From the NCBI GenBank assembly GCA_963755915.1, contig CAVWLP010000003.1, positions 160,001 through 224,000 on the forward strand: a stretch of DNA of 64,000 nucleotides, written 5' to 3'. The translations under genes were made by a program, and so were the position numbers. This document shows, one piece after another, positions 10,249 through 63,079 of the stretch (the first letter of the stretch is position 1; each line of letters opens with the position of its first letter). The stretch comes from an uncultured Phycisphaerales bacterium (GTDB lineage: Bacteria; Planctomycetota; Phycisphaerae; Tepidisphaerales; Tepidisphaeraceae). A model generated the notes under the pieces. It was not told the origin of the DNA and made no database searches. It saw nothing but the letters and a program-made list of their open reading frames with translations.

Positions 10249-10452
10249 TTATTCTACCTTTCGCGTAGCTTGCACCACGCCGACGATCATCTTACGCACG
10301 TCAATTGGCAATGTCGGCCATGCCATGGTCACCGTGGTTAGGTCAGCGTCTTGCTGCGCGGCAGGTGACAAGTCGGGTGACAAGCGATTTTCCTCGGTGG
10401 GCGCAAGTTGTTGATTCTCCTGCTCGTTGCGACCATCATTCAGGGGTCTCAT
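10249..10452 (-). CDS. detached alternative C-terminus of the integrase (DADLTTVTMAWPTLPIDVRKMIVGVV)
   Basis: Begins inside the att repeat with MRPL, the same codons and frame as the integrase at the other att copy. Its only upstream ATG is the reverse complement of the anticodon. Confidence 0.65.
   Translation of the reverse strand: MRPLNDGRNEQENQQLAPTEENRLSPDLSPAAQQDADLTTVTMAWPTLPIDVRKMIVGVVQATRKVE
10362..10390 (+). repeat. candidate integrase arm-type sites, right arm
   Basis: caggtgacaagtcgggtgacaagcgattt, matches 343-371. Confidence 0.7.
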
Positions 10453-10491
10453 AAACCCTTGGTCCTCGGTTCGAATCCGAGTGCTCCCATT
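10441..10491 (+). repeat. att site (displaced tRNA 3' half)
   Basis: Anticodon arm, T arm and 3' acceptor strand only; no D arm or 5' acceptor strand upstream. Confidence 0.92.
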
Positions 10492-26369: not shown

Positions 26370-26740
26370 GGTGGTTCCTTTCTGTTTAGAGAATGCAGAG
26401 GAAAAATTGCAGGCGTCTATATACAGGTCCAAAAGGTGTACGTTTTGGACCTATTTTTGAGAAATCCGCAGATTTTTGTGGAGAAGATTTCACGGATTGA
26501 CAAGAATTTGAAATGTGAATGGGGGGTATGGAGGAATTTGTGGTGGATTGAGCGGGTTGCATTTATTGGGGGGCGTTGCTGGGTGCGATGAAAAGAGGAG
26601 GAAGAGTATTTTCGGTTGTGGTTTGTGTGACGAGAAGATGCGGGAGCTCGTATATAATAGGCGGTTCCGCTGCGGGGGCACATGGCTGGACTGGTGACGT
26701 TCGGGGCGACCTAGAGGTGTTGGGCGGGAGAGCGCCGTGC

Positions 26741-30054: not shown

Positions 30055-30138
30055 ATCCTCAGAACCCCCTCCCTAACCCTCCGCGGGAACACCGGGGACG
30101 GGGAGAGAAGGCAAAAATACTACTCCTACAGGCCGCGG

Positions 30139-51203: not shown

Positions 51204-51369
51204 GGGCCAGATAAAATCTGACGACCGAAAGGCTCGAAGTCTTCGCCGCGCATTTCATTTGGCAATCGGACTTCGGTGAGCTTAGTCGAACCGCATTCGG
51301 CATTCCCCCAAACTCGCAACCAACCTCCGAAACCCCTAAAATATCGTTCCCTCAACAAGGAACCCTCAC

Positions 51370-52893: not shown

Positions 52894-52926
52894 TTTTTAA
52901 CCGCGAAGGTCGCGAAGAGCGCGAAG
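52894..52926 (+). repeat. family G inverted-repeat arm (partner 54787-54818; second pair 59105-59133 / 59299-59382)
   Basis: tttttaaccgcgaaggtcgcgaagagcgcgaag vs reverse complement tttttaaccgccaagacgcgaagagcgcgaag. Confidence 0.75.
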
Positions 52927-53156
52927 GGGATTTTTTTTGGGTGCCGCGGACATCGGTACAAAAGGTAACAGTCCGCAACAAGCTGGGTAATTTGGGTAGG
53001 CCAGATAAGACAAAATCGCGATTTTTGCCATATTATGCCATCGTATGAAGGCTTATGTGGTCGCAATTCCGGCCGCCCCATCGCTGAACCCTAATCCCGC
53101 CAGTTCTGAGCAATGGAGCTTGTGAGCTTACGTCCAGGTTCCACCGCTCATAATAT

Positions 53157-54498: not shown

Positions 54499-54608
54499 GA
54501 TATAGGACGCGAAGAAATAAGGGACCACAGATTACGCGGATGGACGCGGATAAAGCCAAATAAATCGTTTCTGAATTCTTATCCGCGAAATCCGTGAAAT
54601 CCGCGGTT
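54499..54608 (+). repeat. family F long inverted-repeat element (other copies 56682-56816, 59149-59287)
   Basis: accacagattacgcggatggacgcggat ... atccgcgaaatccgtgaaatccgcggtt; copies 1 and 2 also share flank and spacer sequence. Confidence 0.8.
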
Positions 54609-56616: not shown

Positions 56617-56884
56617 CGTACCCTGGACATCTTTTGGGCGGGCGCGTCGAAAAGCAAGTTGAAACGGCACGCTTCAAAACAGATATAGGACGAAAAGAAA
56701 TAAAAGACCACGGATTACGCGGATGGACTTCGACGAGCGCTCAGTCGAGCGGCACGGATGAAGACAAAGAAATCGTTTTTGAATTCTTATCCGCGAAATC
56801 CGTGAAATCCGCGGTTGAATTAAATTTCCTGGGGATCTAGATGTAGGGCGGAATGCAGATGGCCCGTGAACCACCCCCCCCTCC

Positions 56885-58647: not shown

Positions 58648-59040
58648 TTACACGGCCGAGAATTTGTCCAGGCATGACGGACAGAGACAACCTTGGTAAT
58701 CCTGCTCCAGCCGCTTAAGCGTATCGGGGCTGAGGCGAACGGTCTCGCACCAGCAACCGCCATCCGTGCAACAGTCAAAGCCGTTGCCACACTTCGGACA
58801 GACTTTCGCTTGCACGCGTGCGGGACATTCGGCACTGGCAGGCTTACTGTTTGGATACGGACAGTTTCGGCAGCCACTGCCGCAGCACGAGCCGCGAGCG
58901 AGAAGGAAATCGCGCGAGATCGCACCATCCTCGTCAAGAAATGGAAGCAATTGGCCTGCACAAGTTTCACAAACCTCGCGGGACAATGTCTGACGGACCG
59001 CCAGGCACTTTGGGCAGAATCGAAGGATCCTTAGCGGCAT
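58648..59040 (-). CDS. Cys-rich protein (zinc ribbon + DUF5522-like + CWC domain)
   Basis: RGSCCGSGCRNCPY, CPKCGNGFDC..CWC, CLCPSCL. Confidence 0.8.
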   Translation of the reverse strand: MPLRILRFCPKCLAVRQTLSREVCETCAGQLLPFLDEDGAISRDFLLARGSCCGSGCRNCPYPNSKPASAECPARVQAKVCPKCGNGFDCCTDGGCWCETVRLSPDTLKRLEQDYQGCLCPSCLDKFSAV

Positions 59041-59317
59041 TATTTTGCATGTTACCTGCTATCGATATCCGGTCCAGCTTAGAGCGGTTGCGATTGAAAC
59101 GCGTTTAACCGCCAAAACGCCAAGGTCGCCAGGAAAGAAAAGATTTGGAACCGCGGATTGCGCGGATGGACTTCGGCGAGCGCTCAGTCGAGCCGCGCGG
59201 ATAAAGGCAAAGAGACCGTCCTCGAATTCTTATCCGTGCCGGCTCGACTGAGCGCTCGCCGAAGTCCATCCGTGAAATCAGTGGTTATTTTTGTATATTC
59301 TTCGCGCGGTTCGACTG

Positions 59318-59347
59318 CCTTCGGTTCTGAGGCTCAGGCTCGAAGAG
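59318..59347. repeat. 30-bp mini-element family E (CCTTCGG.TC.GAGGCTC.GGCTCGAAGAG); other copies 62271-62330 (outer) and 62289-62318 (inner)
   Basis: Three copies, each exactly 30 bp once nested copies are removed. Confidence 0.85.
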
Positions 59348-59390
59348 AGCTCACCGAAGTCTCTTGGCGTCCTGGTGGTTAAAAATCTTT

Positions 59391-61306
59391 TCAGTTCCGA
59401 CCCAGATGAATCGCCAGCACGGTCACATCCGAGGGCGTGATGCCGCTGATGCGCAGGGCCTGCCCCAAACTGCGGGGATTGAATTTCGTGAACTTCTGCT
59501 TTGCTTCGTTGCGCAGGCCGACGACCCGCGAATAATCCGTGGCCAGCGGGATCAGCTTTGTCTCCAGCTTGGCGAACCGCTCGATTTCGCGGTCCTGGCG
59601 GGCGATGTAGCCTTCGTATTTGATGCGAATTTCCAGACGCTGGGCGACGTCGGGGGAGACGAAGCGGCCAGTTGCGGATAGCGGCGGGTCATCTCTTCAT
59701 GCGCGAAATCCGGGCTGCGGAAAACGGTTTCGGCGCGAAGCTCGCGAATTAACTCGGCGCCGGCGGAAATCGCGTCCCGGCGGGCGGAGAACTGGCGCCA
59801 GCGATGGTCGTCGACCAGGCCGATCTCGCGGCCGATGGGGGTGAGGCGTTCATCGGCGTTGTCGTTGCGAAGATGCAGGCGATGCTCGGCGCGGCTGGTG
59901 AACATGCGATACGGCTCGGTCGGTGGCTTGGTCACCAGGTCGTCGACGAGGACGCCGATGTACGCCTGATCGCGGCGCAGGACGAAATCGGCCTCGCCGC
60001 CGGCGGCATAGCGGGCGGCGTTGATGCCGGCGATGAGGCCCTGGGCGGCGGCCTCTTCGTAGCCGCTGGTGCCGTTGATCTGGCCGGCGAGAAACAGGCC
60101 GGCGATGCGCTTGGTTTGGAGCGTGCTTTGGATCTGCGTCGGCCAGACCATGTCGTATTCGACGGCATAGCCATAGCGGAGAAATTTCGCGTGCTCCAGG
60201 CCGGGGATCAGGCGGACGATGTGTTCCTGCACGTCGGCCGGGAGCGAAGTGCTGATGCCGTTGCAGTAGATTTCGTCGGTGTCGAGGCCTTCGGGCTCGA
60301 GGAAAATCTGATGGCGATCCTTGTCGGCGAAGCGGACGACCTTGTCTTCGATGCTGGGGCAATAGCGCGGGCCGGTGCTTTGAATCTGGCCGGTGTACAT
60401 CGGGGCGCGGTGGAGATTCTGGCGGATGATTTCGTGGATTTCCTGGCACGTGCCGGTGATCCAGCAATTCACCTGCGGCAGCGGAGGGGACCATTCACCC
60501 GCATATTCATTCAAATAGGAAAACGGCGCGGGCCGCTCGTCGCCGGGCTGGTTTTCGAAGGCCGGAAAATCGATCGACTGCCGCTGCAAGCGCGGCGGGG
60601 TGCCGGTCTTGAGGCGGCCCATTTCCAGGCCGAGGTTTTGGAGGCAGGCGGTCAGGCCAGAGGCGGCAGCTTCGCCGACGCGGCCGCCTTCGGTTTGTTT
60701 TTCGCCGGTGTGCATGAGGCCGCGGAGGAAGGTGCCGGTGGTGACGATTGCGGCGCGGCAATGGAGGTGGGTGCCGTCTTTGAGGATGATGGCGCTGACG
60801 GCGGGAGTTGTGCTCGTGCCGAATCCACTGTGTGAGTTTTGGGCTTTGAATTCCGCCGGTGAGGACACCGGCGGCACTCTGGTTGCCGGCGAAGTTGTGG
60901 AGGGAAAAGTAGAGCAGAAGGGCGAGGTGCAAATCTCGGCGACTTCGCCTTGAACGATCGTCAGGTTTGGGCAGGTGTGCAAAAGCTCCTGCACGCGTTT
61001 GGCATATTTGTATTTGTCGGCCTGGGCGCGCGGCCCCCACACTGCCGGGCCCTTGGAGCGATTGAGCATGCGGAACTGAATTCCGGTGTCGTCGGTGGCG
61101 AGGCCCATCAGGCCGCCGAGGGCGTCGATCTCGCGGACCATCTGGCCCTTGGCGAGTCCCCCGATGGCCGGATTGCACGACATCTGGCCGATTTTGGTTT
61201 GGTCCATGGTGATCAGGGCGACGCTGGCGCCGAGGCGGGAGGCAGCCCAGGCGGCTTCGGCGCCGGCGTGACCTCCGCCGATGATGATGATGTCGTAACC
61301 GGCCAT
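59391..61306 (-). CDS. mnmG: tRNA uridine 5-carboxymethylaminomethyl modification enzyme (frameshift near 59660; internal insertion)
   Basis: GGGHAGAEAA, MSCNPAIGG, RLKTGTPPR, GPRYCPSIEDK, AGQINGTSGYEEAAAQG. Confidence 0.96.
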
Positions 61307-63079
61307 TCCTGGACTACCAAGTCCCCAAATTCGTCGTGCCACAAAATCTTTTCGCCATTATAAGAGCGCTGCTCGCGCATGGCCACGATGGTGAGATCGG
61401 GGGGCTGGGGCGGCATTTTTCCCGCGAGGATCAGGGGAATCCTGTCGGCGGCGGGAAGATACTGGCCGATCGGCTCGGAGATCGGCATGGGGACCTCGGC
61501 GGCCTCCCGCCAGCAGAGATAGGTCGGCCACGTTCCGATGTTATCGACCAGGGTATGGGCCGGGGTATTCTGGCGAATCCAGTCACACATTTGTACATAT
61601 TGCGCGGACGGCTCGAAGAGGTTTTCCATCTGCGCCCATCTGCGAAAATCGACGACCGGCGCAACGAAAATTAAGAGCATGCAAATCCACTGGGGCGCTT
61701 TTAGCCTGGCCCCGAGGCAATTGAGCGCGGCTGCCGCGAACATCGCGAGGAAATAATTCAAATCGGCAAGAAATCGAGAGGGGGTAAAAAATCCTGCCGT
61801 CAGGTGAAATGTGGCGGGAATGACATATTCGCCCAGCACAAACATTACCGCCAGCAGGGTCGAGGCGATGATGACGATCGGGTCGAGCCGGATTTTTCGA
61901 GCGAGGGCCAAGGCGATTCCGGCAAGGGCAAAACCGCTGAGCACATATCCCAGCTCGCGCGGAAGAGTGATCAGCGAAAGGATCGGCTCCCCGGCCGTGG
62001 TCATGCCGGTGGAGTGAAACGTGTTTAAATGAGCGGCGTAGGGGATGAGATAAAATGCGTCCAGGAGGATGCCGCAGATGGCGGCGGTGGCCAGGTTGGG
62101 CCAGCGTTTATCCCGGAGGATCTGCCACAAGGCGATGAAGAGCAAAATCGCCGACGCGGTAATCATGACGTGGTGGTGGACGAGAATAGTGGATGCGAAG
62201 AGCAGGGCCATTGCGACGGTTTGGCGATATTTTGTGGCGCTAGCGAACGAACCCCCTCCCCTGCCCTCCCCTCTTCGAGCCTGAGCCTCTCTTCGAGCCC
62301 GAGCCTCAGAGCCGAGGGCAGAGCCGAAGGCCGGATTACCGGGGGCGGGGGAAAGAGTCAGCATCGCGATGAACAGGAGCATCGCCAGTTCATTGGGCAG
62401 CGCCGCCCAGCGGAAATAATCGATGCTTCCATCCCAGGCCCAAAGGCCATAAATGCCCGCGGCATAAATTGCGATGGTTGCGCTGCCACAAACCCGACGT
62501 GCCAGGAGATACATTTGTGCCGTGGTGAGGACGCCCAGCAGCGGTATGAGATCTTTGAAGACGGTGTGCAGGGGCAAGCCGGAAATCCCCGACAAAAGCA
62601 CCAGCAGCACGTGGCTGCCGGTGGGATAATTCAGCGGCACGCCGGCGAAGGGCCAGCGATCGATGGCGTGGTGAGTGAGCTGAATCTGGCGGGCCAGAAT
62701 CAAATGAAACACCGGATCGAGCCACCCCGCGGGCAAAACCCGTGGGAGCGCGACGGCATAACGGCTAACGCCGACGACGACGAGAATCAAAACCAGCCAG
62801 ATTTGCGAAGGATTTCTGCTTGTGCCAGGGGTCGCGCGTGCCCTCACGCAACCCACGATACAGAGGAGCGTAAAAATTCCCCAAACCGGATAAAACAATC
62901 TCAGATCAAAGTGGCTGACAACGGCCCCAAGGTAGACAGCGCCCGCCAGGCCGAGCGAACTTCCAGTCGCAAACCAGTCCAGCCACCCCTCACCAAGCGC
63001 TGAGAGCGCGAGCCAGACAAATGCCCGGGATTAGAAAAAGTGCGGCGGCCGCGAGAAAGCGGATCAGCTCCATCGCCAT
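61213..63079 (-). CDS. multi-TM membrane protein, GT-C-like (frameshift near 62995; in-frame repeat insertion)
   Basis: About 12 TM segments, DPVFH, NYPTGSH, CDWIRQNTP; 3' end uncertain because it overlaps mnmG. Confidence 0.7.

Follow-up and report, generated by a model that had tools for sequence, protein, structure and literature searches.

Probable stepwise colonisation of an intergenic palindrome by ultra-small, gene-less elements in an uncultured Phycisphaerales bacterium

Anatomy of the nested locus

A stretch of 64,000 nucleotides (nt), here called the window, was analysed from the genome of an uncultured Phycisphaerales bacterium (G000, assembly GCA_963755915.1; 6.63 Mb, 59% G+C, three contigs). 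The window corresponds to G000:C3:160001-224000 (contig CAVWLP010000003.1), and position numbers without a contig name are window coordinates. The subject of this study is the palindromic composite at 59105-59382, in which two inverted units of a short repeat, G', flank the palindrome F, and which contains three copies of D-type elements (24 or 26 nt) and one 30-nt element, E, lying within one of the D copies. This nested structure of G, F, D and E, proposed in a sequence-only reading, is confirmed by the sequence itself, by a genome-wide copy-number profile (blastn-short) that changes stepwise exactly at the element boundaries, and by short-read contigs. The composite lies in a spacer of 350 nt flanked by two minus-strand genes, downstream of mnmG (GIDA domain, E = 1e-161) and upstream of a gene for a 130-amino-acid, cysteine-rich CWC/DUF5522 protein. 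The frame of mnmG is broken about 50 codons before its end (59552-59700), with the C-terminal part in another frame and a stop at about 59392, which probably reflects an erroneous homopolymer indel in the long-read assembly and not a real frameshift.

From left to right, the composite opens with a G' unit on the plus strand (59105-59137), composed of a TTAACC head, three CGCCAAG-like 8-nt repeats and an AAGAAA tail; it is empty here and is filled by D in the orthologue of the congeneric genome G001. The F palindrome (59150-59286), with arms of CGCGGAT-like heptamers, carries one D' per arm, at 59169-59194 on the plus strand and, with the same sequence at the mirrored site, at 59241-59266 on the minus strand; both are missing in the G001 orthologue. 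The D copies anticipated in the two F arms are therefore present, but as the variant D', which is 26 nt long and consists of D plus an extra GC in the loop region. The right G' unit, on the minus strand, is divided into an outer part (59296-59307, the AAGAAT..GCGC side ahead of the D insertion) and an inner part (59362-59389), whose TTAACC head ends at 59382 and is followed by AAAATCTT, the loop of canonical G' doublets. Between these parts lies a 24-nt D of the T9/A22 subfamily on the minus strand, itself interrupted in its loop, so that in minus-strand reading its 3' nine bases (59308-59316) are separated from its 5' fifteen bases (59347-59361) by E (59317-59346, plus strand), a 30-nt copy of the E1 form with one T-for-C change that is missing in the G001 orthologue. 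An inverted-repeat search returned the F/D' repeat as 47 nt with 91% complementarity, and the whole stretch folds as single-stranded DNA into one long hairpin of -96.5 kcal/mol (z = -12), a value equalled by none of 200 shuffles.

The commonest form of G' in the genome is a head-to-head doublet that makes a hairpin of about 70 nt, with single units also present. The G arms reported around F are thus present but had to be redefined as two single G' units, whose TTAACC ends point outward around F, the opposite of the common doublet. An insert-free copy of the outward G'-F-G' arrangement lies at G000:C2:2032955-2033100, and no F-less tail-to-tail G' pairs 0-30 nt apart, the form expected of an empty G site for F, were matched. 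On these two grounds, G'-F-G' is best treated as one old composite, and it may be a single unit rather than F inserted in G. As had been claimed for the peeling of E and then D, the locus with its inserts removed aligns over its full length with the peeled orthologue and with the C2:2032955-2033100 copy. Other copies of G' have further small inserts: a 10-nt insert with GCGAAGC occurs at one fixed point of three G' units (G000:C2:2836101, C3:889008, C3:891429), and a CCGAGAAAGGCTCGG-type unit of about 23 nt in several other copies, both of them further micro-insert families.

The three F copies of the window carry zero, one and two D' inserts, respectively. The copy at 54524-54607 has no D' in either arm and represents the paralogous empty state; that at 56707-56815 has a D' in the left arm only (56726-56751), an intermediate state; and the copy of the present locus is filled in both arms.

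Short-read data were available from four soil-metagenome runs of one study, which contain parts of the stretch and may include the source sample; no RNA run was among the listed holders. Run contigs extend over 58938-59195 and 59210-59470, where they agree with the window at every base and without gaps, leaving 59196-59209 outside coverage, and so span the junctions of the left D', the right D', D and E. The nested junctions are thus reproduced exactly in short-read contigs, and no joint skipping an insert at the locus was found among the listed public-run contigs.

Insert size, empty sites and nesting

The ends of D were defined by exact removal in all cut registers. Removal of 24 nt leads to at least one uninterrupted paralogue in 43 of 48 copies; six 24-nt registers give 35-43 of 48, while the best other length gives 13 of 48. 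For E, the 20 nt on either side of each copy were joined and the genome was searched, and the joined flanks match at least four uninterrupted paralogues in 29 of 30 copies. The cut-register and joined-flank results together place D at 24 nt and E at 30 nt with one base of positional ambiguity, the E size being equally consistent with 29 nt plus a one-base duplication. Reversed sequences served as controls: reversed D has 0 matches in 41 genomes compared with 43 for D in G000, and reversed E has 0 compared with 29 for E in G000. Empty sites were found both among paralogues and, as described below, at orthologous positions; the mobility proposed for the small hairpins is supported by these precise paralogous empty sites together with presence and absence between G000 and G001.

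Iterative peeling of the genome removed 31 E, five D' and 72 D in the first round, leaving out a 24-nt tandem look-alike in istA, and a further eight D and two E in the second round, which had been hidden until the first inserts were cut out. The 80 D copies are spread over 16 host clusters, the most populous being R hairpins (22), S (16), Q (10) and W (9); in the window, for instance, a D-subfamily copy sits on the plus strand at 51269-51292 in a W repeat (TTTGGCAATCG family). For the 33 E copies, seven host clusters are distinguished: 18 copies lie in the loop of P hairpins, eight at the centre of D (as two clusters that differ in orientation), and others in the H family and in E itself. D and E are therefore discrete units with base-exact ends that are inserted in many unrelated hosts and in each other. 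The idea that these hairpins target each other holds for E in D, a D-subfamily in E, E in E and D in D. The E-in-E case, 60 nt long, occupies the loop of a P hairpin at 62271-62330 on the minus strand, with the orthologous P of G001 empty, and D-in-D nests occur in other phyla. The deepest nest, found at G000 C2:701007 and C2:814591, consists of a D-subfamily copy in E2 in D in an R hairpin.

One D copy (G000:C2:678998-679111) has a 92-nt insert at the usual E position of its loop, which means that the D loop takes cargo other than E. The look-alike left out of the peeling belongs to an IS21-like element (istA/istB) at G000:C2:816085-818942, of which about 30-40 further copies exist. In its istA gene, the linker that joins the N-terminal part to the catalytic part holds a 24-nt repeat arrayed in tandem, with 5.5-13 units (e.g., C2:816377-816520 and C3:1371201-1371512, both outside the window). 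The istA unit and D are identical in 20 of 24 bases, the whole stem included, and in the same frame the unit reads GSTVLAAG and D reads GSTELAEV. The array may be an expanded in-frame D-like insert, or it may be a coincidence, for which the expected number is about 0.04 per genome under uniform composition.

Comparison with a congener

The congener G001 is 83-91% identical to G000 over the locus region and 85-95% in syntenic blocks. Its spacer lies between the same genes and conserves the G'-F-G' composite. The left G' of G001 has a canonical D at the site that is empty in G000; its F arms have no D' in either arm, and its spacer has no E. The D site of the right G' is filled in both genomes, with a D-subfamily copy in G001, and the two right-arm copies belong to different subfamilies that differ by a paired 8:23 change. 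Either the right-arm D is old and has diverged by this paired change, or the site has been hit twice. A third G' copy, at C2:2525189, has D with E at the right-arm D site, which makes recurrent site-specific insertion plausible. The differences from the G001 orthologue support the relative order of G'-F-G', then D, then E. Of the insertion order suggested by the sequence-only reading (G and F, then D, then E), the succession of composite, D and E thus fits the orthologue, but the step of F into G comes without an empty G site.

The comparison was extended to 300 kb of G001 around the locus, which gave 35 syntenic blocks with 203,190 aligned columns. All D and E copies detected in the aligned blocks (two D and five E after removal of duplicates) are in one genome only, in a scan that is blind to interrupted or subfamily copies such as the right-arm D; a single apparent match common to both genomes was a misalignment at the present locus and was rejected. 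E is found only in G001 at two P loops, one of them with 15 of 15 identical bases on each flank; the P hairpin at 30062-30110 of the window is empty, with E at the orthologous G001 site. The 60-nt E-in-E insert at 62271-62330 is found only in G000. Similarly, one D is found only in G000 and one only in G001, where 24 nt are inserted exactly at window position 52919, within the G'-like unit at 52905-52935 (GCGCGAAGA / GCGCGAAGG) that is empty in G000. The two genomes are thus separated by clean indels of 24, 30 and 60 nt with identical flanks, and whole P and R hairpins are also G000/G001 indels. D and E have been gained or lost since the two congeners split, and the near-complete turnover between them implies that the process is recent.

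Structure of D and E and their target preference

D is a sequence of 24 nt, GACTTCGGCGAGCTCAGTCGAGCC, and the next base is nearly always G. Its 5-nt tail precedes a short hairpin, which is built of a CGGC/GCCG stem completed by the G just downstream of D, a tandem G.A/A.G, a G-C pair and a variable 6-nt loop. Covariation was examined in 37 distinct variants with at most four mismatches, taken from G000, its relatives and other phyla. The pairs 6:25, 7:24, 8:23, 9:22 and 12:19 are Watson-Crick in 91% of cells, compared with 78% (sd 1.8%) when the 3' letters are permuted, a set in which 0 of 1000 permutations reach the observed value, and with 2-26% in slid registers; the variants are kin, and the permutation figure is accordingly not a probability. 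Pair 9:22 is C-G in 20 variants and T-A in 16, and pair 8:23 is G-C in 28, A-T in three and T-A in one. G10/A21 and A11/G20 are conserved, positions 13-18 are variable as in a loop, and E enters this loop between positions 14 and 15. Two D subfamilies that differ by paired changes on stacked positions would be hard to get by chance, and the pattern of variation shows that the D hairpin is selected or recognised.

E folds as an imperfect palindrome and exists in two forms, in which positions 8, 15 and 22 of the 29-nt core are C/G/C or G/C/G. Two G.T wobbles are kept on one strand in both forms, and mixed forms are nearly absent across 13 genomes. A search of Rfam at a permissive threshold returned nothing above a gathering score, and a sub-threshold match to Ms_IGR-7 (22 bits compared with a gathering score of 45) was rejected.

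Sequence preferences around D were examined at 118 loci from other genomes. The position next to D on its 3' side holds G in 116 of them and the one beyond it a pyrimidine in 98, and the two positions ahead of D are occupied most frequently by C (70) and G (59). At 35% of these loci, a stem of 6 bp or more flanks D within 8 nt, compared with 15% in randomly re-paired flanks, and the corresponding rates in G000 are 40% and 22%. These rates indicate that hairpin loops are favoured but not obligatory targets. By crude gene calls, 45 of 58 copies are intergenic; 57 of 121 D copies lie in long stop-free frames, which are common at this G+C.

Distribution across genomes

With at most two mismatches, D has 43 copies in G000 and is found in 15 of 40 relatives, all of one family: ten of the 12 other genomes of the genus and five of the 12 other genera of the family. 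One of the D-bearing genera rests on an unpublished genome, G014, with a single two-mismatch match. No D was found in the 16 genomes from other families of the class. E is patchier, occurring in 12 of the 40 relatives; among the fetched loci, it was found outside the family in one Planctomycetota bin only.

In a wider species collection, the exact D 24-mer is present in at least 119 stretches, with titles labelled as 13 phyla. The labels among the matches listed are Planctomycetota, Chloroflexota, Nitrospirota, Nitrospinota, Verrucomicrobiota, Acidobacteriota, Desulfobacterota-type lineages, Latescibacterota, Bdellovibrionota, Tectomicrobia, Omnitrophota and Methylomirabilota, together with one archaeal-labelled contig of 4 kb; none of the 80 titles listed for exact D has a cyanobacterial label. 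The exact sequence also occurs in nine viral contigs. In other phyla, D sits in unrelated hairpin loops, in other D copies and in E-like CCCTTCGACAG/GCTCAGG units. Genomes in which D is surrounded by the host hairpins known from G000 (e.g., those of loci L024, L055, L070 and L080) are labelled Phycisphaerales or Planctomycetota.

Search for the mover

The statement that the window holds no mobilising gene stood: the RAYT-like, DUF559, four-helix-bundle and GIY-YIG genes of G000 are all outside it. The partner types named in the sequence-only reading were largely recovered in the genome, namely two RAYT-like, one DUF559 and two four-helix-bundle genes, but GxxExxY was not found in G000. The RAYT-like genes are Y1_Tnp genes related to REP-associated tyrosine transposases, with scores of 57 and 42 bits compared with the NF047646 cut-off of 80. 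As had been supposed, such genes are flanked by repeats in four of five cases, but the families concerned are U, Y, P and H, none of which is D, E, F or G. The two RAYT-like genes (G000:C3:1125094-1125798 and C3:576251-576835) are each bracketed by a hairpin family of their own, Y and U. The DUF559 gene (C2:1930312-1930635) sits between two complete P hairpins (G000:C2:1930262-1930760) and one four-helix-bundle gene between inverted H repeats (G000:C2:2802600-2803110), and the families of these gene-in-hairpin cassettes, P and H, serve as E landing sites. The first four-helix-bundle gene has no high-copy repeat marked around it. The naming of these partner types was thus right in kind, and it suggests partners for the host families; U, P and H are themselves landing sites of D or E.

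Candidate partners were compared with the presence of D and E among the 40 relatives. RAYT-like type 1 is not convincing as a D partner, being present in 28 relatives, including 14 without D, nor is DUF559 as an E partner, being in 21 relatives and lacking in six of the 12 E-bearing genomes. RAYT-like type 2 is present in 13 of the 15 relatives with D and in six of the 25 without; it is the best D correlate, though a weak one, and the association is a hint among genomes that are kin.

G000 has one small GIY-YIG gene, encoding 96 amino acids (G000:C1:84953-85240), directly downstream of a tRNA gene, whose protein is 94% identical in G001. The gene is not flanked by D or E, and tblastn against all D loci found the G001 orthologue only. 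It is preceded by two perfect low-copy hairpins with CCTGAGCGA / TCGAAGGG-type words, which recall the E-like units of other phyla (C1:84750-85240).

A longer element with D halves at its ends was also looked for, and only the E-bearing D, the D' form, the D with the 92-nt insert and chance pairs were found; neither D nor E yielded an autonomous version in this search or in the fetched loci. Ten D pairs 150-2500 nt apart occur in 129 fetched loci, and the open reading frames inspected between D pairs are ordinary genes, such as infA (L130) and genes for a secreted protein and an FHA-like protein (L057, L021).

Relation to known systems

The SDR1-8 repeats of heterocyst-forming cyanobacteria, attributed to work of Elhai and colleagues in 2008, are reportedly gene-less sequences of about 21-27 nt in tens to hundreds of copies, and are said to be nested in one another and placed in hairpin contexts. 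They are not known to have a mover. Against this description, D, with 24 nt and 80 copies, and E, with 30 nt and 33 copies, slightly above the SDR size range, are similar in being discrete insertions nested in each other. They differ in lineage, D and E belonging to Planctomycetota-type genomes with D under 13 phylum labels, and, by description alone and not by sequence, in having orthologous filled and empty pairs, a covariation fold and four-level nests. D and E are accordingly read here as mobile hairpins of very small size, non-autonomous and similar in kind to those of cyanobacteria.

The REP/REPIN sequences are short, GC-rich imperfect palindromes, mostly extragenic and non-autonomous, for which movement in trans as single-stranded hairpins has been proposed (PMC3116915; PMC3733652). 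Known REPs are described there as having a GTAG or CGTC tetranucleotide at one end, and in REP/RAYT and IS200/IS605 substrates it is a short sequence beside the hairpin that is cut (PMC3733652). REPIN-RAYT systems have been described as lineage-specific and vertically inherited. D resembles REPs in its stem with compensatory changes and E in being an imperfect palindrome; the tail-plus-hairpin shape of D and the constant G on its 3' side recall REP and IS200 substrates, and the RAYT-like genes of G000, bracketed by their own U and Y hairpins, recall REPtrons and TIRtrons. D and E nevertheless flank no RAYT-like gene here, enter other repeats with base precision and, in the case of D, are identical across phyla. 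With the end tags, the doublets and the flanked gene missing, D and E are not filed as REPs.

The Ssn GIY-YIG nuclease has been described as acting on a single-stranded NTS/SRM hairpin of about 30 nt that has hundreds of copies, flanks its gene and occurs in many phyla; the enzyme is presented as a cutter that modulates transformation and not as an inserter (Chenal et al., 2025, PMC11893778). The NTS/SRM motif as printed there (PMC11893778) is not in D or E. The hairpins next to the GIY-YIG gene of G000 are different ones.

In 2006, Tobes and Pareja reportedly described insertion sequences whose targets are REP hairpins. IS200/IS605 elements transpose as single strands with two different subterminal hairpins. 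Elements of both groups are 0.7-2 kb long and encode their enzyme. D and E share with both groups the hairpin landing sites, the lack of a long target duplication and the short specific adjoining sequence. D differs from IS200/IS605 in having one hairpin and 24 nt in total, and no longer D-ended element was found. Classical (DDE) miniature inverted-repeat transposable elements combine terminal inverted repeats with a duplicated target site of at least 2 bp; with D and E, by contrast, removal of exactly 24 or 30 nt restores the host, with one ambiguous base at most. Selfish palindromes are also known as the Rickettsia palindromic elements of 100-150 bp and as the mobile GC-rich palindromes of fungal mitochondria. 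As in the Rickettsia elements, the lengths of D (24 nt) and E (30 nt) are multiples of three, which makes in-frame placement in genes possible; unlike them, coding insertions of D are not shown, stop-free frames being common at this G+C. A literature search found no description of D or E, the D sequence and its complement being unmatched in paper texts, with supplements (e.g., those of PMC3733652 and PMC11893778) outside its scope.

Other repeats of the window

The count of at least eight coexisting repeat families was right in that multiple families are present, but it has been raised to at least ten visible ones. A 45-nt, AT-richer repeat with a GGTCCAAAAGGTGTACGTTTTGGACC core, of about 30 copies, is found at 26413-26457 and also at G000:C3:1125880-1125925, just downstream of the Y-flanked RAYT-like gene. 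In addition, two stretches of 51 nt at 176-226 and 10441-10491, 92% identical, resemble tRNA 3' halves (GGTTCGAATCC T-arm).

Interpretation and rival explanations

The locus is probably an old G'-F-G' intergenic palindrome that was colonised stepwise by two ultra-small, gene-less mobile elements, D and E. These would insert with precision, any ambiguity or duplication being limited to one base, both into each other and at the loops, or next to the loops, of other short GC-rich hairpin repeats, and the resulting composites of host and insert would then multiply as units, as is suggested by D subfamilies that track R subfamilies. Movement may take place through single-stranded DNA hairpins, with a structure-specific enzyme acting in trans to cut and rejoin them. 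A tentative candidate for the mover is an HUH/Y1 enzyme (RAYT or IS200 type); the rest of the weight falls on another nuclease (GIY-YIG or Vsr-like) acting with repair, or on an enzyme not yet recognised. Mirrored copies are present in both F arms here, in both G' arms of G001 and in an F-like palindrome of G021, and they suggest arm-to-arm copying: once one arm had been hit, copying within the extruded palindrome would explain the second insert.

Without any dedicated mobility of D and E, the same pattern might arise if composites are what multiplies and if the insert is spread or erased through gene conversion between paralogous hairpins. Such a process would account for R hairpins with GCTGCC carrying the C9/G22 D and those with GCCGCC carrying the T9/A22 D, for the proportions of filled and uninterrupted S (16 and 15) and R (22 and 40) hairpins, always at one site, and for the whole P and R hairpins that differ between G000 and G001. 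Conversion among paralogues is, however, unable to bring an insert into a non-homologous host, and D is found in 16 unrelated host clusters here and in more than 100 unrelated contexts in other phyla; single orthologous hairpins, moreover, differ by the exact 24- or 30-nt unit alone, with identical flanks. This account is decidedly unlikely. An origin by templated repair without a transposase, in which a polymerase that stalls at or repairs an extruded hairpin takes a second hairpin as its template and thereby places a short stable module in the loop, the survivors being the most stable or repair-prone modules, is unlikely as well. It would be in keeping with the enrichment of insertions at or near hairpin loops, the mirrored copies in palindromic hosts (F, the G' of G001 and the F-like palindrome of G021), the CTTCGG and GCGAAGC-type mini-hairpin motifs that recur in inserts and the failure of the search to find a mover gene. 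The boundaries are nonetheless base-exact in more than 100 independent contexts, with the 24-nt unit always whole, its unpaired 5' tail included, and template switching within a genome gives no account of a D that is identical across many phyla.

It is highly improbable that D and E are selected functional modules, such as protein-binding, RNA-stabilising or terminating hairpins, whose spread is secondary. The compensatory changes of D, the G.T wobbles of E on the same strand in both forms with three co-varying sites, the paired 8:23 change between the orthologous right-arm D copies and the mostly intergenic position of the copies (45/58) would agree with such a role. On the other side stand the almost complete turnover at orthologous sites, the variable orientation to the upstream gene (D 17/8, E 5/5), the placement of copies within other repeats and not at defined gene positions, and the lack of an Rfam family at threshold; the functional reading is in any case compatible with mobility. 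That the nesting arose through errors of assembly or sequencing in a long-read metagenome bin is scarcely credible. The bin has probable indel errors (the frame break of mnmG) and a contamination estimate of 8%, but the short-read run contigs match the nested junctions exactly and none skips the inserts, the same elements are in many assemblies made by other groups and methods, and the copies are exact and recur 30-80 times.

Several results weigh against stepwise colonisation by mobile D and E, or against parts of that reading. No D- or E-flanked gene was found in G000, in the 129 fetched loci or between D pairs, and the genome G011 (83% complete) has 18 D and eight E with no match to either RAYT-like protein or to DUF559. 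The abundances of D and E are uncoupled, with 39 D and 0 E in G006 and nine D and 111 E in G015, so that a single mover common to both is not indicated. D alone is thermodynamically marginal (-4 kcal/mol, z = -0.48), and its minimum-energy fold by nearest-neighbour calculation differs from the covariation model. A clear flanking stem accompanies only about one-third of the D copies in other phyla. A strand bias could not be shown against GC skew, in a genome whose skew has no replichore pattern, nor could a bias in transcription orientation in tandem spacers by crude gene calls (D 17 sense and eight antisense, E five and five). Both elements are without GTAG, CGTC or their complements, and they stand singly and not as inverted doublets, the pairs being mirrored inserts in the arms of a host palindrome. 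Finally, some of the filled sites may reflect multiplication of composites rather than new insertion.

Significance

What stands out is nesting to four levels, direct evidence from orthologous sites and the identity of D across phyla. A more far-reaching and, at present, doubtful proposal is that D, E and similar units of 20-35 nt are pan-bacterial "nano-transposons", tailed single hairpins cut out and pasted base-exact into exposed hairpin loops by an enzyme not yet linked to them, possibly one with a conserved host function and not a transposase. If that were true, the identity of D under 13 phylum labels would mean frequent transfer between phyla or a near-universal partner; the cross-phylum identity in itself raises the question of horizontal spread or a universal partner. 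D and E would, if mobile in this way, define the minimal recognition signal of their mover, which would help in understanding single-stranded DNA recombination and could possibly serve as a small insertion tag. In the genomes that harbour them, these units swell intergenic regions, make long palindromes and break contigs, and they yield recurrent spurious peptides in the gene calls of metagenome bins. The nested layers provide a readable relative chronology of insertions, and elements of 24-30 nt that transpose with base precision would be near the lower size limit for mobile DNA.

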